The notes under the pieces: model-generated | Seen by the model: the letters and a program-made list of their open reading frames with translations, nothing else | Told to the model about the DNA's origin: nothing | The model's database searches: none | From: a virus | Strand: one strand, 5' to 3' | Virus record (IMG/VR): IMGVR_UViG_3300045988_023336 | Coordinates: 1 to 35,619 of that record | DNA length: 35,619 bases | Part shown: positions 55-35,619 of the stretch, one piece after another | Layout: each line of letters starts with the position of its first letter | Numbering within the stretch: the first letter of the stretch is position 1 | Program-made: the position numbers and the translations under genes

Positions 55-304
55 GTGCAGGTTTCGCGGCACGCTTAGCACGGGTCTTGGCGCGTTCTGA
101 TTCTACGATCTCGGCCACTGTTTTAGGCTTCTCTTCGTCCTTCACCTTTGTCGCTTCTACAACTGCGTCCGCTAACTTGTCAAGATCGGTTTTACGTTCC
201 GTTACTTCCGGTATGGCTTCGCCGGCCAATTCACGTAAATAGTTAGATGCCGCTAACAATTCCTTCACACTCTCATTTCCGATTAATTCGATTACTACTT
301 TCAT
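1..304 (-). CDS. N-terminal part (101 codons) of a ~209-aa acidic Pro/Ala/Glu-repeat protein; the ORF runs off the window start and resumes at 35259..35619
   Basis: The ATG at 304-302 overlaps the TGA of the upstream HTH gene (ATGA). The minus frame stays open to base 1 (MKVVIELIGNESVKELLAASNYLRELAGEAIPEVTERKTDLDKLADAVVEATKVKDEEKPKTVAEIVESERAKTRAKRAAKPAPAPAEEPAPAEEPAPAEE). Collapsing the 35-nt overlap of the window ends keeps it in frame with 35259..35576. Confidence 0.7.
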   Translation of the reverse strand, partial: MKVVIELIGNESVKELLAASNYLRELAGEAIPEVTERKTDLDKLADAVVEATKVKDEEKPKTVAEIVESERAKTRAKRAAKPAPAPAEEPAPAEEPAPAEE

Positions 305-480
305 TTCTTTTTAAAATTAAAAATTGTTTCTAATAATTCATTTTTGTTCACTCTGATTTTGCCCGTTCCGTTCTCGTACCGGGTGAGTTTTCCGGCGTTG
401 AGCTGGTAGCGAATAGCGTTTTCGGTGCACTCCGCTAACCGGGCGGCTTCCGCCACTGTGATAAGTTCTACTTTTTCCAT
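301..480 (-). CDS. 59-aa helix-turn-helix DNA-binding protein (excisionase/MerR-like, HTH_17-type), absent from the ORF track because it is under 60 aa
   Basis: Hand translation: MEKVELITVAEAARLAECTENAIRYQLNAGKLTRYENGTGKIRVNKNELLETIFNFKKK. It fits the pattern 'LTv.EaA.ll.vs..tiry....Gkl......g.iri....l' typical of Xis/AlpA-type HTH proteins. Its start overlaps the end of 468..797 by 13 nt, and its TGA overlaps the next ATG (ATGA at 301-304). Confidence 0.75.
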   Translation of the reverse strand: MEKVELITVAEAARLAECTENAIRYQLNAGKLTRYENGTGKIRVNKNELLETIFNFKKK

Positions 481-797
481 TTCATCTTTTCGTTAAATTT
501 AAAATTCAATTTGTCAGACGTTCGATAAGTTTGTACGTGATCGGAGTATGCAGCGCGCCGGGCCTGCTCGAAAATAGTTTCGTAACGTTTGGCGTGTGGA
601 ATTATAAAGCCCCGGATTTTATACTTAAACTTTTTTCCGGCTTCTTCTTCTCGTTGCAAATCATCGAACATCATTTTCGAGTTGCCCGGATAGCCGTATA
701 GCATTGTAGCCTCGCCTATCGTTTTGCACGCTGTAATCCTCTCCCGTATAATCTTATAAAAGAACGCTTCTAACTTATAAATGTCTATTGCTGCCAT
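468..797 (-). CDS. Hypothetical 109-aa protein, first gene of the early operon
   Basis: Track ORF. It lies 77 nt downstream of a TAnnTTTG box and is followed by the tightly overlapping HTH gene. No motif recognised. Confidence 0.6.
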   Translation of the reverse strand: MAAIDIYKLEAFFYKIIRERITACKTIGEATMLYGYPGNSKMMFDDLQREEEAGKKFKYKIRGFIIPHAKRYETIFEQARRAAYSDHVQTYRTSDKLNFKFNEKMKWKK

Positions 798-925: not shown

Positions 926-1086
926 TAATTTAACTCTGATTAACGGTTTTGAGGGTTTGGTAACAGTGTCAATGATAAATAGCCCTTTTTAAACGCATCT
1001 TTCATGCCTTAACTGCGTGCGTATCAGTTAGTTAAGTGGCAAAAACAGGTGAAGTGTCTAAGATGAAACATAGTTTCTCTATTAGT

Positions 1087-1269
1087 TTATATTTAAATAT
1101 TTCCATAAATTCATTCACATATTAATTCATATATTTACATATTTTATAGATTATATTACTATTTCATTCTTATCTCTATATATCATCTTTCCATCTTTGA
1201 CAAATACACTATATTACAGTATAAAGTACTATAAATAAGCAAGTTAAGTGTCAAAGATACAAATTTTAA
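1087..1269. repeat. Copy A of a ~185-bp dispersed direct repeat (partner at 21164..21347)
   Basis: 1087-1108 is identical (22/22) to 21164-21185 and contains the palindrome ATATTTAAATAT. 1185-1269 matches 21263-21347 at 80/85 positions. The intervening AT-rich spacer is 76 nt in copy A and 77 nt in copy B. Confidence 0.9.
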
Positions 1270-1284
1270 TCTTTTACAAGCAAA
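1252..1284 (-). promoter_or_regulatory. Promoter-like element P0 inside repeat copy A (-7 TATCTTTG, -33 TTTG, 21-nt spacer)
   Basis: Plus-strand caaagata at 1252-1259 and caaa at 1281-1284. The equivalent position in copy B is degenerate (aaaagata at 21330-21337, giving TATCTTTT). Confidence 0.4.
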
Positions 1285-1313
1285 AACGCCAACTCGTTAA
1301 GAATCAGCGTTTT
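1283..1313 (-). terminator. Weak stem-loop about 50 nt downstream of the last late gene; candidate late-operon terminator
   Basis: aaaacgc (1283-1289) pairs with gcgtttt (1307-1313) around a 17-nt loop. On the minus-sense RNA the stem runs into UUUUUG. Confidence 0.3.
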
Positions 1314-1325
1314 AAATTTTCAAGC

Positions 1326-1360
1326 GTCAAAGATGGAAAGGCATTTGTGAAAGATGGAAG
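1326..1360. promoter_or_regulatory. Two direct operator-like boxes, GTCAAAGATGGAAAG and GTGAAAGATGGAAG, spaced 21 bp start to start
   Basis: Boxes at 1326-1340 and 1347-1360. The first is the exact reverse complement of 1187-1201 and of 21265-21279. Confidence 0.55.
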
Positions 1361-1363
1361 GCG

Positions 1364-4369: not shown

Positions 4370-4873
4370 TTACTCTTCGAACTCTTTAAGACCCTCGGCT
4401 GCTTCTGCTTCCGCTGCTGCTTTGTTTGCCGCTCTAGTAGCCGCTGCCTTTTTAGCCGCTTCGCTGCGTCTTGCCGCGGCGATCTCTTCCTCTGTCAGCT
4501 CCGGTTCACCTTCTACAGGCGCTTCCGGTTCTGCTTCCGGCTCTTCTACAGGCGCTTCCGGTTCTGCTTCCGGTTCTGCTTCCGGTTCTGCTTGCAGGTC
4601 TATAAAGTACTCGCGGTAATTCTCGTTAGCTTCCATGAACTCTACAGCCTTCTCGTCACTTGTGTTGAATGCGCGGTACACTCGTCCATCTTCAATCGAA
4701 TTGATGAACAGTCCCGGCTTCATTACGTAGCGGGTGTGTACACCAGTTAAATAACGTTCTTCGTACCAACGTTGTGCAAACAGGCGATCCGCCCCGCACG
4801 CAATATCCAATTTTAGATTAGTCATTGTCTGACACAATGAAACGATCTGCCCTATATCTGTAATTTTTTCCAT
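4370..4873 (-). CDS. Hypothetical 167-aa protein with an acidic EAEP/EAPVE tandem-repeat linker and an Ala/Lys-rich C-terminus
   Basis: Track ORF. The repeat is visible in both DNA and protein (AEPEAEPEAEPEAPVEEPEAEPEAPVEGEPE). Confidence 0.6.
   Translation of the reverse strand: MEKITDIGQIVSLCQTMTNLKLDIACGADRLFAQRWYEERYLTGVHTRYVMKPGLFINSIEDGRVYRAFNTSDEKAVEFMEANENYREYFIDLQAEPEAEPEAEPEAPVEEPEAEPEAPVEGEPELTEEEIAAARRSEAAKKAAATRAANKAAAEAEAAEGLKEFEE
4508..4595. repeat. In-frame tandem repeat: two 30-nt units with 33-nt period, plus 12-nt ttctgcttccgg units
   Basis: 4511-4540 equals 4544-4573. These are followed by repeated ttctgcttccgg. Confidence 0.85.
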
Positions 4874-20315: not shown

Positions 20316-21004
20316 TATTTATCGTCCTCCTTGTGATCCTTTTTAAAGTTCTTGATCGAGCTAACCTTTGCACGTACTTTCGGATCGGTTACATTGACCG
20401 TCAAACCGCCCTTGATAGCTTCGCCGTTGGATGTGTAGTCCATTTGCGTTTTAATGCCCCGTAGCGCACGAACGTAGTTGGCGTCGAACTGTCCCACCGT
20501 CGCGCCCTGATCGAGGTCCTGTGCGATGGCTTCGCGTATCCTGTCGATCACCGCTATGAAGTCCGCGCATATCGTCAGATCGAACTCTTTCAGATTCTCG
20601 GCGTAGGTAGCGCGGCGGTTGTGCAAATAGTTGACGTTAGCGCCCAGGAACATGCAGAACTCGCCCTCCGATTGAAGGTGCTTCTTCGGCACTTCATAGA
20701 GCGTCCCAGCCATGTTACCGGACTTGACGGCCTCTTGTGTTATAACGGGCGTCGCTTCACACCAAGCCGAGTAAATCGCGTACGCCTCCCAAAGTTCTTG
20801 GGGCTCCTGCCAGATAGGCGTCATGCCGTAATGCGCCGTAGCGACCTGGTAGCACTTGGTGTAATTGAACGAATCTGCCAAATACTTGGTAGCCGCGTAT
20901 GTGGGAGCCAATTGGAAGTGCGCGTAATCCGGCCTAACCTTCTCGACTTTTGGCAGCTGTACCGCTTCCTTCGTTTCTATAATTTCTTTCTTCTTTGTAG
21001 CCAT
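20315..21004 (-). CDS. terS: Putative terminase small subunit (229 aa from the ATG at 21004)
   Basis: It lies immediately upstream of terL and overlaps it. The track start at 21079 would run through the promoter and operator boxes. The ATG at 21004 (MATKKKEII...) sits 23 nt downstream of a TATTTTTG box. Confidence 0.55.
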   Translation of the reverse strand: MATKKKEIIETKEAVQLPKVEKVRPDYAHFQLAPTYAATKYLADSFNYTKCYQVATAHYGMTPIWQEPQELWEAYAIYSAWCEATPVITQEAVKSGNMAGTLYEVPKKHLQSEGEFCMFLGANVNYLHNRRATYAENLKEFDLTICADFIAVIDRIREAIAQDLDQGATVGQFDANYVRALRGIKTQMDYTSNGEAIKGGLTVNVTDPKVRAKVSSIKNFKKDHKEDDK

Positions 21005-21026
21005 ATAATTTTTATTTACAACTCTA

Positions 21027-21087
21027 CAAAAATACGCTTTTTCCGCCCAAATCGCCATCTTTCCACCTACCAAAAACATCTTTCCAC
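21027..21087 (-). promoter_or_regulatory. Late promoter candidate (-7 TATTTTTG) with two phased GTGGAAAGATG boxes in place of a -33 element
   Basis: Plus-strand caaaaata at 21027-21034. catctttccac occurs at 21056-21066 and 21077-21087, exactly 21 bp apart. The proximal box ends 21 nt upstream of the -7 box. Confidence 0.5.
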
Positions 21088-21122
21088 TCCGAAACCCTGA
21101 TGAACAGGGCGTTTCAGCTCAA

Positions 21123-21147
21123 GTGTCATAGATGGAAAGATGGAAAC
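21123..21147. promoter_or_regulatory. Operator-like boxes GTGTCATAGATGGAAAG plus an overlapping GATGGAAAC
   Basis: 14/15 match to the reverse complement of 21265-21279 and to 1326-1340. Confidence 0.5.
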
Positions 21148-21163
21148 GGGTTTTCCCTATAGA

Positions 21164-21347
21164 TTATATTTAAATATTTCCATAATTTCAATAACATTCA
21201 ATAACAATAGTATAATATAGTTAACTATATTATTACTTATTAATAGTTACTAACTAGTATATATCTTTCCATCTTTGACAAATACACTATATTATATGAT
21301 AAAGTACTATAAATAAGCAAGTTAGGTGTAAAAGATACAAATTTTAA
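21164..21347. repeat. Copy B of the ~185-bp dispersed direct repeat (partner at 1087..1269)
   Basis: See copy A: a 22/22 box, a 77-nt AT-rich spacer and an 80/85 block. Confidence 0.9.
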
Positions 21348-21547
21348 CCTATGACATCAATAATTTGAAAAGTGCGTTCTGCGTCCTGTGGGGCTGGTCA
21401 GGTGTCAAACATGAAATGGCAGTGTCAAAGACATTTTTCACTACTTTTTTGTCAAAAACAGGCTTTTTAGTTAAAATACCGTTAAAATCAAGCTTTCTCT
21501 CTAAAAAGTTTTCTCTCACAAAGTTTTTTGAGAAGTGCGTTAAATTT

Positions 21548-21601
21548 TTTAACTAAAAGTCACCTTAACGTTTTTATACGAAAAGGTGACTTTTAGTTAA
21601 A
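21548..21601. repeat. Perfect 19-bp inverted repeat with a 16-nt loop, 5 nt after the last early gene
   Basis: tttaactaaaagtcacctt (21548-21566) is the exact reverse complement of aaggtgacttttagttaaa (21583-21601). Neither strand has a U-tract 3' of the stem, so it is not a canonical intrinsic terminator. Confidence 0.85.
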
Positions 21602-21606
21602 TCCAT

Positions 21607-22146
21607 TTAACAATCCAGATTGTACATAACCTTCCAGTCGTCTAAAATATCTTTACATTTCCATCTCTCGGCCCTCTCAATCGTTTTCCATGTCAGCGTA
21701 CGCCGGTCTAAAACATCTAGCGACCTACTGCCATCGCAGTACATATTAACCCGGTACAGCATTGAAACCTCTATCCCGTTACGGTTTAGCTCCGTATCTT
21801 TACTCGGGTAGATCGGGCGTTCTATGTCGTCGTTCTCATACGGCCCTACACGCTTCTTGTCCTTGTCACGGTACAGCATATTCTCCACTGTCGGTATGCG
21901 CTCCGGGTCGGTTCTCGTGTTCCTATCGTCCCGTACTTTGCTAGCCGCGTATATTATGTCCCGGATCGCCTCACAGAACAACGACGCGTTAACCATGTGA
22001 AACGGTTTGCCCTTCACCTTGAGATACTTCACACCGTTCGCCTCAAGCCAGTTGAAGATGAAAAACGCATGAAGATTATATAACTGTGCCATTTCTTCGA
22101 TGACTAGAACTCGTCTCTGTTTCTTCTTAATATATGGTGTCGGCAT
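21607..22146 (-). CDS. Hypothetical 179-aa protein, last early gene, with a possible N-terminal winged-HTH
   Basis: Track ORF. The segment IEEMAQLYNLHAFFIFNWLEANGVKYLKVKGKPFHMVNASLF loosely resembles an Xis/MerR-type HTH. Confidence 0.55.
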   Translation of the reverse strand: MPTPYIKKKQRRVLVIEEMAQLYNLHAFFIFNWLEANGVKYLKVKGKPFHMVNASLFCEAIRDIIYAASKVRDDRNTRTDPERIPTVENMLYRDKDKKRVGPYENDDIERPIYPSKDTELNRNGIEVSMLYRVNMYCDGSRSLDVLDRRTLTWKTIERAERWKCKDILDDWKVMYNLDC

Positions 22147-25878: not shown

Positions 25879-26310
25879 TTATTTATTATTGGTTATTGCT
25901 TCCGCCATCTTCTTAAGCTCGTTGCGTGAGATGTTAACGGTGAACTGGTTGCCCGGGCTGAATATCTGCCATACGCCTGCCATCTTCGGGAAACGCGCAG
26001 TGTGATCCCCTGGGTTGTTTAGGTGCACTATCTCGTTGCTACTTGACGGTTTGTACTCTGCAAGACTTAAGAGCGTCTTAACCGCTGCGTCCGCGTCGCC
26101 TAGATCGATGTCCATCTCTAGGGAACTTGTCCCAGCTAGCTGCCCGGTGATCTGATAGGTTACCGCGTCGCCCTTCGTGACTTCCACGATCTTACATGTT
26201 CCCAGGCGGAAAGACTTAAGCGTTTTTAAACTGCCTGATGCGGTTGATACTTGCGCCATTGCGCTAACTGATAACAAAACTACTGCTAAAATACTGATTA
26301 ACTTTTTCAT
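25879..26310 (-). CDS. Secreted 143-aa protein with a cleavable signal peptide
   Basis: MKKLISILAVVLLSVSAMA-QVST is a classical n-h-c signal peptide with an AxA site and no lipobox Cys. The gene is preceded by the conserved hairpin element. Confidence 0.65.
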   Translation of the reverse strand: MKKLISILAVVLLSVSAMAQVSTASGSLKTLKSFRLGTCKIVEVTKGDAVTYQITGQLAGTSSLEMDIDLGDADAAVKTLLSLAEYKPSSSNEIVHLNNPGDHTARFPKMAGVWQIFSPGNQFTVNISRNELKKMAEAITNNK

Positions 26311-26353
26311 ATCTTTTGGGTGTTGTGGGCGGTGTTACCCGCCCGGGTTAATT
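26311..26353 (-). promoter_or_regulatory. Conserved intergenic element 1: 6-bp GC hairpin (26327-26344) plus a conserved 16-nt pre-ATG tract
   Basis: Plus-strand GGGCGG tgttac CCGCCC. 35/40 positions match 28453-28492. Four of the five differences are two compensatory base-pair flips in the stem. Confidence 0.7.
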
Positions 26354-26810: not shown

Positions 26811-26841
26811 CAAAGATACGGGTTCTTTTCATACTACCAAA
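26811..26841 (-). promoter_or_regulatory. Early promoter P2 (-7 TATCTTTG, -33 TTTG, 19-nt spacer)
   Basis: Plus-strand caaagata at 26811-26818 and caaa at 26838-26841. The -7 box and the ~40-nt leader are nearly identical to P3. Confidence 0.6.
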
Positions 26842-28164: not shown

Positions 28165-28452
28165 CTAAAATATTTTAAAGGTTGATATTGCGTGATTAAA
28201 ATCTGATTCGCTAGCGCGCCACACTGTGTACATAGCGTACGTGAAGCGTTCACCCGACCCTAGTTTAGCGCGAATTTCCTTAACTTCTTCAAGGGAAGAA
28301 AAGGTTTTCAGTGCCTTAACTAGTTTCTGCATTTTCAGAGACCGGCTTTCGATCTGTTTCCTTGTGGGTTCTCCGAAGAACCCTTTCTTGTTCCAAAAGC
28401 GGCGGCGGGCTTTTAAATCCGCCTCGCTTAGTTCTCCTGTATTCTGTTTCAT
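28165..28452 (-). CDS. Hypothetical basic 95-aa protein, second gene of cassette 2
   Basis: Track ORF. It is preceded by conserved hairpin element 2. Confidence 0.55.
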   Translation of the reverse strand: MKQNTGELSEADLKARRRFWNKKGFFGEPTRKQIESRSLKMQKLVKALKTFSSLEEVKEIRAKLGSGERFTYAMYTVWRASESDFNHAISTFKIF

Positions 28453-28492
28453 ATCTTTTGAGTGTTGTGGCGGGTGTTACCCCGCCGGGTTA
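28453..28492 (-). promoter_or_regulatory. Conserved intergenic element 2: 6-bp GC hairpin (28469-28486) plus a conserved pre-ATG tract
   Basis: Plus-strand GGCGGG tgttac CCCGCC. This is the covarying partner of 26327-26344. Confidence 0.7.
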
Positions 28493-28717: not shown

Positions 28718-28756
28718 GACTTTAATTTTTAAGTGGTTATTTCCTTTTGACATTTC

Positions 28757-28807
28757 AAAGATACGACTTAATTACGAACTACCAAAACTTTTCTCAAAAA
28801 ACTTTAG
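28757..28807 (-). promoter_or_regulatory. Early promoter P3 (-7 TATCTTTG, -33 TTTG, 18-nt spacer, shared upstream element)
   Basis: Plus-strand caaagata at 28757-28764 and caaa at 28783-28786. caaaaaactttag at 28795-28807 is identical to 913-925. Confidence 0.6.
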
Positions 28808-28822
28808 CATATTAACAAAAAT

Positions 28823-28852
28823 AAAGTCTCGCGTATCACTACGAAAGACTTT
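28823..28852 (-). terminator. Weak stem-loop downstream of the primase gene
   Basis: aaagtct (28823-28829) pairs with agacttt (28846-28852) around a 16-nt loop. On the minus-sense RNA it is followed by AUUUUUGUU. Confidence 0.25.
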
Positions 28853-28911
28853 TTAACTGAAAAACCACCCTAAAAGTATTAACCTTAAAAATTAGAAAAG
28901 AAAGTTTTGTA

Positions 28912-31302
28912 TCACAAAGATAGTAATTTTTTGCTTTCCTTGCTACCTTTACGGATATAAATTACTTGTCGGCCGTACAATTTAGTTCTATTTAACGTTC
29001 CTTTGTACCAGCCTCCTAACTGTCGCATAGCTGTTGCCAGTTCGCGTCCCTTCGCGCTTGTATAATCTTCTTTCCGGCGTCCCAGCGCATCTACCCAAAG
29101 CTCCATCAAACAGAACGTATTTTTTTGAACCGTCCCAACCTCTTCCAGCGATCCGGCCAGAAAGTCAGCGCGTTGTTGTTCGGTGCGGTCTTCATAGTCA
29201 GCCGGGAAAAGCGTATTTACATAGTTCTCTATAATACCTACTAGCGGGCTTTCTTCTGTAAATTCTTCGCGTCCCTCGTTTGCAATCGCTTCCGCTTCGT
29301 CCGATAAGATAAGGCTTTCACCCAACATGTACAGCTCCATTGCTTCCGCCCATAATTGGTCCACTACGTCCTCGAAAGACTTCTCGAACAGCTTGTGCGT
29401 GTTCTTGTTGGCGCGTACCTCGATCGGGAAGAAACGGCGGTTGCCGGTCTTGTCCTTCAAAAACTCATCGTCGTTTGTAGACCCGAAAAATACGCATTGT
29501 CGGCGGTGCGTTTTTACCCGGCGGGCGTATGCGCTACGATACGTATCTTCGCGCTTGCTTATGAAGTTCTTAGTAGCCTCCACGTCCGAACGGCGAAGGG
29601 CTGACAACTCGGCTAGCTCCACGATCCAGGCGTGTTGTATTGCTTCATACGCCTTTTGCCCGGACACGTCCGTTAACGAGTCATTGAACCAGCCTTTCGA
29701 AAGCGCCTGTATAAGCGTGGACTTTCCTGCGCCTTGTCCTGAATACATAACCAAAGCCGTATCGAATTTGCGGCCTGGCTCGTAAACTCTAGTAACGGCG
29801 GCAACCAGCATTTTGCGGAACGCCTCGGACACATAGATACTAGGCTCTGCTCCCATGTAGTCAACCAAGAAATTATCAATACGTTTCACGCCGTCCCATC
29901 TTAGTGCCTCTAGGTACTTCTTGATAGGGTGGAAAGCGTTATCGCTGCAAACCTTTTCCAGTGCATCAGTTAGTTTGCTGTCATTATAAATACCGTGCAA
30001 GTCCTCTATACGTCCACGGATAATTGCTACAGCTGTGTCATCCAACATATCACCCTTCTTTATGTCCTTCGAGAAGAACGGCGTACGGGTGTACACGATC
30101 GTGTCTAGAAACAAGTCATAAGCTAGCAGATCATTTAATAGTGGATCACACTTGAAAGCGTTAACGAAGTTGCGAACGGTACACAATTTATCACCTTTGC
30201 GATCTAAATCCCAAACAAGTTCGGCAGCGGTCTGCGCGTCGCTCTTAACAGCGTCCGCGTATTCTTCGAAGTCGGCTAGATCATCGTCCACGGCTACCAT
30301 ATCTTTAACGCACTCTTTATCGGCGCAAATTAGCTTGTTCATCTCGCGGGTACTGTCTTCCTTACCCAGGTGTCCAAACTTGTGCACACGTACCAAATCG
30401 TAGGCGTTATAAGCGTGTCCGTCTCCGATAGGGTCGGTTGAGTGGTGAGAAAAGCATAGTACGTCGTCATACACGACTAAACCAGCCGCACCCGATCCAA
30501 GCACGTACGTATAACGTCCGTTTTCCGCTTCTGTGTAAACGTCTGACAAGTATTTCTCTATTGCTGCCTGTATCGTATACGAGCGGCAAAACGCGCCTAC
30601 TAGGCCCTCTTTGTCTCTAGGGTCTTTCGCCATCTCTTTACTGATGATAGAACGGGTATCACGTTCTACTTCTGAATGGAATGCCCATTTGCGCACGTCG
30701 CGCCATTCTTCATTGTCTCCATACAAACCTACGAGATACTCCGCGCTGATCGGCTCGCCCTCAAACACTTCGAAAAGCCCAGTTTGATCCTTGGAAAGAG
30801 ATTGCCAGTACATCATACGCTCGGGCTGGAAGGTTGTTTTATCAAATAGATCGATACCTAACAACTCGGCTACTTTACGCGCTGCGGCTTCGTACATAGT
30901 AACGTCTGTAACCTCTTCCTTTAACGGCATGATAAGACGGTAACGGCGCGATCCGGGACGATCAGATCTGGTAGTATAAATAGCTGCCGCCACACCGGAA
31001 AAACGATCCGCAAAATCGAACGGGAATAAATCATCTCCGAAGTCTACATCTAATGTAATCATTGAACGGGACATAACAGCCTTCTTAAGGCGTTGCGCGC
31101 CAGACAACTCGCCAGCCATGAATCCGCCTACGTCCTTCAAAGACGATTTAGCGGGCTTGTCTAATTTATCGTACTCACGTACCGTTTCGTTGGTGATAAC
31201 GGGTGTTCCCAAGCGTTTTACAAAATCATCCCATGTGAGGCGCACCGCCTTCCATTTCAGAGACGCTGAAGAACCTGCAAGTGATAAGGTGTATTTTTCC
31301 AT
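28912..31302 (-). CDS. Primase/helicase with a VirE (virulence-associated protein E) P-loop domain (796 aa)
   Basis: HPIKKYLEALRWDGVKRIDNFLVDYMGAE...EPGRKFDTALVMYSGQGAGKSTL...NRRFFPIEV matches the conserved VirE/D5-like NTPase core with Walker A GQGAGKST. The start lies 1 nt after the polymerase stop. Confidence 0.85.
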   Translation of the reverse strand: MEKYTLSLAGSSASLKWKAVRLTWDDFVKRLGTPVITNETVREYDKLDKPAKSSLKDVGGFMAGELSGAQRLKKAVMSRSMITLDVDFGDDLFPFDFADRFSGVAAAIYTTRSDRPGSRRYRLIMPLKEEVTDVTMYEAAARKVAELLGIDLFDKTTFQPERMMYWQSLSKDQTGLFEVFEGEPISAEYLVGLYGDNEEWRDVRKWAFHSEVERDTRSIISKEMAKDPRDKEGLVGAFCRSYTIQAAIEKYLSDVYTEAENGRYTYVLGSGAAGLVVYDDVLCFSHHSTDPIGDGHAYNAYDLVRVHKFGHLGKEDSTREMNKLICADKECVKDMVAVDDDLADFEEYADAVKSDAQTAAELVWDLDRKGDKLCTVRNFVNAFKCDPLLNDLLAYDLFLDTIVYTRTPFFSKDIKKGDMLDDTAVAIIRGRIEDLHGIYNDSKLTDALEKVCSDNAFHPIKKYLEALRWDGVKRIDNFLVDYMGAEPSIYVSEAFRKMLVAAVTRVYEPGRKFDTALVMYSGQGAGKSTLIQALSKGWFNDSLTDVSGQKAYEAIQHAWIVELAELSALRRSDVEATKNFISKREDTYRSAYARRVKTHRRQCVFFGSTNDDEFLKDKTGNRRFFPIEVRANKNTHKLFEKSFEDVVDQLWAEAMELYMLGESLILSDEAEAIANEGREEFTEESPLVGIIENYVNTLFPADYEDRTEQQRADFLAGSLEEVGTVQKNTFCLMELWVDALGRRKEDYTSAKGRELATAMRQLGGWYKGTLNRTKLYGRQVIYIRKGSKESKKLLSL

Positions 31303-34029: not shown

Positions 34030-34059
34030 CAAAGATATTGCTTTATTTTAAACTTCAAA
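34030..34059 (-). promoter_or_regulatory. Early promoter P4 (-7 TATCTTTG, -33 TTTG, 18-nt spacer)
   Basis: Plus-strand caaagata at 34030-34037 and caaa at 34056-34059. The spacer GCTTTATTTTAAACTTCAAA is nearly identical to the P1 spacer. Confidence 0.6.
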
Positions 34060-35259: not shown

Positions 35260-35619
35260 TATAGGCGGCTCGAAATGTATGCAACAAAATCGTTAAACAT
35301 CTCTTCCTTCAACGTCGGGAAACTGGAAGCGCCTACGCTTTCAAAAGCTTCCTGTACAATCGGGCGTTTCTTCGCGTTTAGAGCCTTCATAGCCCATGAT
35401 TTACAATCGTCGATAGTGTGCTCCGTTTCTGTCTTAGCGGGCTTCTCTGATGGTGCCGGAGCAGGTTCTTCCACTGGTGCCGGAGCAGGTTCTTCCACTG
35501 GTGCCGGAGCAGGTTCTTCCACTGGTGCGGGTTCTTCTGCCTTTGCAGGTTCTTCCACTGGTGTAGGCTCTTCCACTGGTGCAGGCTCTTCTGCTGGTGC
35601 AGGCTCTTCTGCTGGTGCA
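35259..35619 (-). CDS. C-terminal part of the wrap-around acidic PAPxEE-repeat protein (continuation of 1..304)
   Basis: The frame of track ORF 35259..35576 remains open to the window end. The repeat EEPAPAPV occurs three times, followed by a globular C-terminus (TEHTIDDCKSWAMKALNAKKRPIVQEAFESVGASSFPTLKEEMFNDFVAYISSRL). Confidence 0.7.
   Translation of the reverse strand, partial: APAEEPAPAEEPAPVEEPTPVEEPAKAEEPAPVEEPAPAPVEEPAPAPVEEPAPAPSEKPAKTETEHTIDDCKSWAMKALNAKKRPIVQEAFESVGASSFPTLKEEMFNDFVAYISSRL
35451..35619. repeat. In-frame tandem repeats: 3 perfect 24-nt units (35451-35522), then degenerate 18-nt units running to the window end
   Basis: tggtgccggagcaggttcttccac occurs three times. Then ggctcttc(c/t)(a/g)ctggtgca units follow. 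The last 35 nt equal the first 35 nt of the window. Confidence 0.9.

Follow-up and report, generated by a model that had tools for sequence, protein, structure and literature searches.

The window analysed here, 35,619 nucleotides of IMG/VR record IMGVR_UViG_3300045988_023336, is an almost complete, circularly assembled Bacteroides siphophage genome (~35.6 kb) with an overlap of its two ends that falls inside an 18-nt tandem repeat. Phages isolated from sewage on B. ovatus, B. koreensis or B. kribbi (BO668P2, BK735P2, BKO1-1, BO1 and others) share 85-90% identity with it; a literature search with the names of these phages found no paper. The minus strand carries every gene, and the gene layout, read from the better-annotated relatives, leaves only two long AT-rich gaps. 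Region A (~798-1363) separates the end of the structural and lysis genes from the first early genes, and region B (21005-21606) lies between the last early/replication gene and the small terminase gene terS. Both gaps contain copies of a 15-bp box, GTCAAAGATGGAAAG. In more than 50 related gut-phage genomes, one residue of the phage primase-helicase changes together with one base of this box, and we therefore propose the primase-helicase as the reader of the box and the two gaps as probable sites of replication initiation.

Three copies of the box are exact, one on the plus strand (1326-1340) and two on the minus strand (1187-1201 and 21265-21279). Near-copies are found at 21125-21139 (plus strand, one mismatch), at 1347-1361 (plus strand, two mismatches) and, with three mismatches, at 1250 and 21404. 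Scanning the whole window with up to three mismatches gives ten matches, compared to 0.90 ± 1.03 (maximum 4) in 100 dinucleotide shuffles, and the enrichment is located in the two gaps, which hold seven of the ten. The three matches outside them (4866, 17590 and 19474) have three mismatches each, which is the chance expectation. Similarly, 12 of the 48 AAAGAT hexamers fall within 2.1% of the window, where 1.0 would be expected, and 20 of the 139 unit-like 9-mers fall within 2.4% of it. The box copies reported in the initial annotation are all present, including the degenerate ones at 1054, 1248, 21326, 21402 and 21422; the partial copies at 21056 and 21077, 21 bp apart, have the 9-mer GGAAAGATG in common.

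The repeat unit turns out to be shorter than the 15-mer that had been taken for it. The 15-mer consists of two tandem 8/9-bp units, GTCAAAGAT and TGGAAAGAT, with one base in common. The consensus of the 8-9-bp unit is GT[C/A]A[A/T]AGAT, and it is frequently arranged in tandem pairs.

The units are organized in two paralogous modules, A and B (Table 1), which share a 94-nt core that is 91% identical and a further 61 nt that are 77% identical, and which can be aligned over ~330-390 bp. Module A contains 8 units and module B 11-12, with single units scattered around the tandems. In each module, units in opposite orientations flank 112-116 bp of 81-85% AT, and in these stretches the AT content over 100 bp reaches its maximum for the genome (windows starting at 1087 and 21165, tied at 86%). 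Additional phased units are located outside them. By homology, the counterpart of the box at 21125 is the degenerate 1056 copy, and the counterparts of the copies at 1326 and 1347 are those at 21404 and 21424. The 139- and 140-bp distances between inverted boxes, described earlier as a conserved spacing, do exist; because the regions are paralogous, these distances were inherited with the duplicated module, and they do not represent independent maintenance.

Table 1. Features of the two modules and of the primase-helicase gene (window coordinates; a dot marks features without strand)
Feature	Position	Strand	Context or basis
Module A, iteron array plus AT-rich centre	997..1361	.	Between late (structural/lysis) gene end and early promoter; paralogous to module B
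Unit A1, GTCTAAGAT, degenerate	1056..1064	+	Left flank of AT-rich centre; variable in relatives
AT-rich centre of module A, 85% AT, candidate unwinding element	1072..1183	.	AT content
Box A2, tandem GTCAAAGAT + TGGAAAGAT	1185..1201	-	Inverted relative to A1; unit position 3 co-varies with residue 778
A3, inverted unit pair GTCAAAGAT (+, 1250-1258) / GTAAAAGAT (-, 1269-1277) around invariant ACAAATTTTAA	1250..1277	.	Alignment of relatives
Units A4, GTCAAAGAT (1326-1334), and A5, GTGAAAGAT (1347-1355), direct repeats 21 bp apart	1326..1355	+	
Module B, iteron array plus AT-rich centre	21057..21459	.	Between early/replication gene end and terS
Units B0a (21057-21065) and B0b (21078-21086), both TGGAAAGAT, 21 bp apart	21057..21086	-	
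Box B1, tandem GTCATAGAT + TGGAAAGAT, then third partial unit TGGAAAC	21125..21141	+	Left flank of AT-rich centre
AT-rich centre of module B, 81% AT	21147..21262	.	AT content
Box B2, tandem GTCAAAGAT + TGGAAAGAT	21263..21279	-	Inverted relative to B1; co-varies with residue 778
B4, inverted unit pair GTAAAAGAT (+) / GTCATAGGT (-)	21328..21355	.	
Direct units B5, GTCAAACAT (21404), B6, GTCAAAGAC (21424), and GTCAAAAAC (21451)	21404..21459	+	
C-terminal domain of primase-helicase, residues 729-796, predicted winged-helix topology	28915..29118	-	7PDS profile match; AlphaFold2 model
Codon 778, CGA (Arg), motif KLYG-R-QVIY, proposed specificity residue	28969..28971	-	Second residue after the beta-hairpin 'wing' turn in the model
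Fused primase-helicase, 796 amino acids, proposed initiator and iteron reader	28912..31302	-	Primase-like N-terminal third, VapE-like superfamily 3 (SF3) core, C-terminal DNA-binding domain

We compared the modules in 14 related complete genomes of the ovatus type (15 with the window) and in two more distant phages of the type that infects B. caccae. Both modules are found at the same two positions in all 15 ovatus-type genomes and in the caccae-type phages. Within one genome, A and B are 82-91% identical, whereas between the ovatus and caccae types no similarity of the module cores is detectable by BLAST, which matched the early promoter segment alone. Paralogues within a genome are thus more alike than orthologues between clades, which argues for concerted evolution of the modules. 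Conservation is lower in the unit columns than in the remainder of the gap, with a mean pairwise identity of 0.82 versus 0.88 in region A and 0.77 versus 0.88 in region B. These changes are coordinated: five genomes have GTA at A2, B2, B1, B6 and B0a, and the other ten have GTC.

Region B has two further elements. An imperfect hairpin at 21086-21116 (GAAACCCTG-ATGAA-CAGGGCGTTTC), between B0b and B1, is near-invariant in the 15 genomes despite the variable units that flank it. Directly after the last early gene, a 24-bp inverted repeat with a 6-nt loop (21548-21601, 92% complementary) is probably a terminator; several relatives have another stem sequence at this position (AAAATGGGGTTAAC...GTTAACCCC), so that the hairpin is kept and its sequence replaced.

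The GTC/GTA difference is matched by a single position in the phage proteome. Of 3643 variable amino-acid columns in the 38 proteins shared by the 15 genomes, only one splits perfectly by box type, and this is residue 778 of the primase-helicase (motif RTKLYG-x-QVIY), which is arginine in all GTC genomes and alanine or serine in all GTA genomes. Ala-778 was found on a C-terminal background that differs from one GTC genome at just 1 other of 96 positions. With the hypothesis fixed beforehand, we fetched 78 IMG/VR loci by the C-terminal 262 residues of the protein, with 10-kb flanks. Among the new ovatus-type contigs, arginine goes with GTC in 8 of 10, and alanine, glutamine or valine goes with GTA in 19 of 19. 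The pooled ovatus-type table comprises 18 arginine genomes with C and 2 exceptions, and 0 non-arginine genomes with C and 24 with A (Fisher p = 1.8e-10).

When all proteins of 43 contigs were rescanned, residue 778 came out at the top of 4292 variable columns, with a normalised mutual information of 0.86 (n = 41), and the runner-up columns reached at most 0.65 on only 15-18 genomes. The same rule is seen independently in the caccae-type clade, where the C-terminal domain is ~60% identical: arginine or lysine is paired with TGTCATAGATGTCATAGAT and serine or proline with TGTAATAGATGTAATAGAT (5/0/0/5). In an unbiased tally that covered the base 5' to each A[AT]AGAT core, the odds ratio was 5.8 within the modules (p = 3e-16), compared with 1.05 (p = 0.63) in the remainder of these genomes. 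Codon 778 itself occurs as CGA, CAA, GCA, GTA, TCG, CCR or AAG, and the neighbouring codons change synonymously only. It lies ~7.5 kb from either module, and no column of the proteins encoded in between is associated with box type, which makes linkage or hitch-hiking an unlikely cause of the coupling. The co-variation suggests, indirectly, that initiator and iterons form a matched and specific pair.

The protein in question is encoded next to a family-A DNA polymerase. Its residues 464-682 form a VapE-like domain (Pfam PF05272, E = 1.5e-76), it matches PHROG 256 and PHROG 9765, and its N-terminal 360 residues correspond to a PHROG primase family. The closest solved relative is Rep1 of the Staphylococcus aureus pathogenicity island (SaPI) SaPI1, in complex with DNA (PDB 7PDS, phmmer E = 8.5e-72). 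For the C-terminal domain, a profile built from 10 diverse sequences has one significant match in the PDB, again 7PDS (residues 353-464, E = 1e-4), and the alignment sets the YG-x-Q motif on GIGKQ of Rep1. This profile also has a weak match, KTYGKQKIY, in the wing of the Hop2 winged helix. AlphaFold2, run on a 25-sequence alignment, predicts a strand, helices and a beta-hairpin for residues 729-796, with a predicted local distance difference test score (pLDDT) of 75-82. A Foldseek search of the PDB with this model returned no significant match (best E 0.2), and the top matches are mostly winged-helix domains. Two other approaches to the domain were uninformative: a single-sequence AlphaFold2 model was unusable (mean pLDDT 47), and a word-index search with the domain alone returned only 9 close fragments.

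More distant relatives, ~40% identical over the C-terminal 262 residues (IMG/VR loci L077, L081, L086 and L091), have 8-11 iterons clustered directly after the gene. Their iterons are GGTGTAACTTT where x of the YG-x-Q motif is proline, TGTCAACAAAGT where it is arginine and GACTACA where it is methionine. These relatives share the protein family, the motif and the GT[C/A]A head of the unit with our phage, again with arginine paired with C and proline with A. They differ in having a single gene-adjacent cluster (the adjacency is seen in L077, L081 and L086) and in the tails of their units, AACTTT and ACAAAGT. The recurrence of the head, with C for arginine and A for non-basic residues, concerns few cases, and the orientation of the iterons was chosen after viewing them.

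Taken together, it appears likely that the boxes are iterons read by the winged-helix-like C-terminal domain of a VapE/SF3 self-loading primase-helicase, and that A and B are two paralogous origin-type modules. Early transcription would yield the primase-helicase, whose C-terminal domains would dock on the inverted iterons, with hexamers forming on both flanks of the AT-rich centre. Melting of this stretch would follow, and the same protein would unwind the DNA and prime synthesis by the phage family-A DNA polymerase. Residue 778, placed by the model at the tip of the wing, would help to read position 3 of the unit, with arginine or lysine corresponding to C:G and alanine, serine, glutamine, valine or proline to A:T. 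Both modules might bind the protein and fire, or one of the two might be auxiliary.

SaPI Reps provide the closest precedent for such a system. They are self-loading initiator-helicases whose C-terminal winged helix recognises 5-6-nt iterons. Immediately downstream of rep, 6-12 of these iterons surround an AT-rich centre, two or more to a side and in opposite directions (PMC9371898). Like the SaPI proteins (PDB 7PDS, 7OLA), the phage protein is a VapE-like SF3 initiator homologue with a related C-terminal domain, and like PriRep5 it has a fused primase. The DNA sites are also alike in that short iterons, 8-12 per module here and thus within the SaPI range, enclose an AT-rich centre between inverted copies. 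In module B, two to three plus-strand units (21125-21149) and two minus-strand units (21263-21279) flank the 116-bp centre, as in SaPI origins. The departures from the SaPI arrangement are that the phage has two distant modules under concerted evolution in place of one site immediately downstream of rep, that its units are 8-9 bp long and that extra units overlap promoter and terminator regions. In addition, the SaPIs are Gram-positive satellites, whereas this is a Bacteroidota phage.

The domain order resembles that of P4 alpha, in which primase, SF3 helicase and a C-terminal winged-helix DNA-binding domain form one polypeptide (PMC2777425). The phage protein likewise joins these three activities, a likeness of domain description; P4 differs in its DnaG-type primase and in a helicase that is not VapE-like. 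The ori and crr sites of P4 are ~4.5 kb apart and both contain type I repeats, so that P4, like this phage, has the same iteron in two separate regions of one replicon. The Bacillus phage SPP1, a virulent siphophage, has two distant regions, oriL and oriR, with the same repeats for its replisome organiser G38P beside AT-rich DNA, which is also the arrangement proposed here. However, G38P binds the origin as a protein of its own, to which a loader and a DnaB-type helicase are recruited; it is not a self-loading primase-helicase. Since module B is closer than module A to the published SaPI anatomy, B may be the main origin and A a second or auxiliary site like crr of P4.

Several observations weigh against this interpretation. 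The support is sequence-based throughout, and the winged-helix fold rests on a medium-confidence model. The modules are ~7.5 kb from the initiator gene on either side, not directly downstream of it; the gap that follows the gene (28754-28911) has no unit besides a promoter -7 box. In module A, the AT-rich centre is flanked by one degenerate unit on the left versus two on the right, so that the SaPI pattern is found in part. Both exceptions to the residue/base rule carry arginine: L029 has GTA at A2 and its locus lacks module B, and L019 is mixed, with a GTC-type B2 and a GTA first unit at A2, which may be a hint of partial redundancy between the modules. Among the outer units, many (A1, A4 and A5) are degenerate and depart from the rule. 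Caccae-type contigs with proline at the specificity position (L052-L069, L073) have two unit classes in about equal numbers in both modules, GTAATAGAT, which switches with the protein residue, and GTCACAGAT, which persists unswitched beside it. Their coexistence suggests context-dependent reading or a second reader. Finally, the p-values overstate the number of independent events because the genomes are related, and the GTA type may have had one or two origins per clade. The recurrence of the rule in two clades and on differing C-terminal backgrounds is the stronger argument.

A transcriptional role of the boxes also has to be considered. We scanned the window for the Bacteroides promoter (TTTG-N17-23-TAnnTTTG) in place of sigma-70 promoters, which are inapplicable to Bacteroides, and obtained five full matches. 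One of them (1284-1252, module A) overlaps a box and is not conserved in relatives. It is the only place at which the boxes would fit as Bacteroides sigma-A promoters (TTTG at -33, TAnnTTTG at -7), and at A3/B4 most relatives have lost the -7 G, which speaks against this explanation of the boxes. Upstream of terS, the sequence TATTTTTG (21034-21027, minus strand) is the -7 box of a putative late promoter, 23 nt before the ATG at 21004. No -33 TTTG is present at a suitable spacing, and iteron units occupy the upstream positions, with B0a starting 31 nt and B0b 52 nt upstream of this -7 box. The resemblance of the box to a -7 element and the location of B0a/B0b on the late promoter make a transcriptional role possible, and a link of these two units to late transcription is possible as well.

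Two further kinds of transcription signal are repeated in this genome. Four canonical promoters (TTTG, 18-19 nt, TA(C/T)CTTTG) on the minus strand, at 874-903, 26811-26841, 28756-28786 and 34030-34059, lie in repeated promoter/leader segments of 36-88 nt upstream of early genes. A 49-nt repeat (26302-26350 and 28444-28492, 88% identical) contains the GC-rich hairpin GGGCGGTGTTACCCGCCC; both copies lie just downstream of an early gene and abut the start of the next, and they look like a terminator or attenuator cassette.

Of the explanations that compete with replication iterons, one keeps the primase-helicase as the reader and places the origin elsewhere, so that binding would couple replication to late transcription or termination, or would provide a negative-control or 'handcuffing' site. 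Co-variation points to protein-DNA pairing and not to origin firing, the units overlap the late promoter region and adjoin putative terminators, and the initiator gene is distant from the modules, which is not so in relatives. We still consider this unlikely, because the window has no other iteron cluster, the architecture agrees with the described SaPI origin and the genome's two segments of highest AT content are in the modules. An operator array of a phage regulator, for example the 59-residue HTH_17 protein (301..480), which would turn early genes off and late genes on, possibly with looping, is quite improbable. The initial annotation had left the choice between operators and iterons open and had pointed to two helix-turn-helix (HTH) reading frames next to the gaps, 301..480 and 21607..22146. 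Both modules are indeed upstream of operon starts, the second early gene is a small HTH gene, and B0a/B0b, upstream of a -7 box without a -33 partner, are positioned as would suit an activator or repressor. However, no column of 301..480 (16 variable columns, 34 genomes), 468..797, terS (155 variable columns) or 21607..22146 tracks box type, whereas one residue of the distant primase-helicase does, and we rejected all four neighbours as readers. The HTH_17 match of 301..480 does not reach the Pfam cut-off, and for 21607..22146 neither Pfam nor PHROG gives a match, leaving its HTH label unsupported. Inverted units around an 81-85% AT core are also origin-like rather than operator-like, and of the earlier proposal the evidence favours the iteron alternative, with a dedicated reader.

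It is very unlikely that the boxes have no dedicated reader and are -7-like elements (TAnnTTTG read backwards is CAAAGATA) and 8-bp tandem repeats in a duplicated promoter/terminator segment homogenised by gene conversion. Read on the opposite strand, CAAAGAT is the -7 core of the four canonical phage promoters, the sequence at 1284-1252 fits the full consensus, and the greater likeness of paralogues within a genome (82-91%) than of orthologues between clades points to concerted evolution. Against this, the -7 element does not keep its final G at A3/B4 in relatives, most boxes lack a -33 partner, and gene conversion cannot account for the coupling, in two clades, of the boxes to a codon at a distance of 7.5 kb. 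We give least credence to the boxes being pac sites bound by the small terminase subunit. Small terminases do bind repeated sites, such as SPP1 pac and lambda cosB, and module B is directly upstream of terS; but module A is away from the packaging genes, 0 of the 155 variable terS columns are associated with box type, and what looks like a 141-bp terminal repeat inside module B, in a related record, results from k-mer overlap in the assembly.

If the replication reading is correct, a broader and more tentative view, which we regard as rather doubtful as a whole, is that these phages fall into natural origin-initiator 'specificity types'. One wing-tip residue (R/K versus A/S/Q/V/P) would be matched to one iteron base pair (C:G versus A:T), and selection would preserve the match across heavy recombination in two or more clades of gut Bacteroides phages that circulate together. 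The twin modules might both be needed, like ori and crr of P4, and binding at B0a/B0b might tie late transcription to replication. Such types would be the replication counterpart of plasmid incompatibility or phage immunity groups, and with them related virulent phages could replicate orthogonally when they infect the same cell, or evade parasites that hijack origins. They would also be a clean natural case of initiator-origin co-evolution amid rampant mosaic recombination.

We found no mapped replication origins of gut Bacteroides phages in the searchable literature. The analysis supplies precise candidate origins, a named initiator and a one-residue/one-base rule that can be tested with two proteins and two oligonucleotides. 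The main value lies in this precise and cheap experiment and in the natural specificity polymorphism on which it draws. If the rule holds, it would give origin cassettes with orthogonal initiators as engineering parts for Bacteroides phages and plasmids, and an origin-annotation rule for hundreds of related virome contigs.

Three 'complete genome' GenBank records (PQ571266, PQ571272 and PQ571271; L001, L002 and L006) end in 141 bp that are an exact copy of their own start, and the OP1726xx records overlap themselves by 55 or 61 bp; we take these to be assembler k-mer overlaps left in the deposits, not terminal repeats. We had considered that the physical genome ends might lie inside module B, where BKO1-1 has an apparent terminal repeat of ~140 bp, and rejected this because the overlap is 141 bp in three records from the same laboratory and 55 bp in others. 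Some relatives (BKO1-1/L001, 20672-20857; BO1; BK687P4) have a 138-bp insertion in region A, at the equivalent of window position ~861/862, which is absent from the window and is annotated as a 61-residue open reading frame in BKO1-1. It follows the early promoter and precedes the first gene, and it was set aside because it has no relation to the boxes.

An Rfam search of the whole window gave no structured-RNA match. The 18-nt tandem repeats at 1-71 and 35445-35619 continue across the junction of the circular assembly and encode a PAPAEE/PAPVEE-type tract in a 209-residue early protein (gene from ~35259 through the window end to ~300, minus strand), which is poorly conserved, with relatives aligning over 30-50% of its length only. 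Tandem repeats of 12/33 nt at 4510-4599 similarly encode an EPEA/EPEAPVE tract in a structural-module protein (4370..4873, minus strand), over 60-80% of which relatives align.

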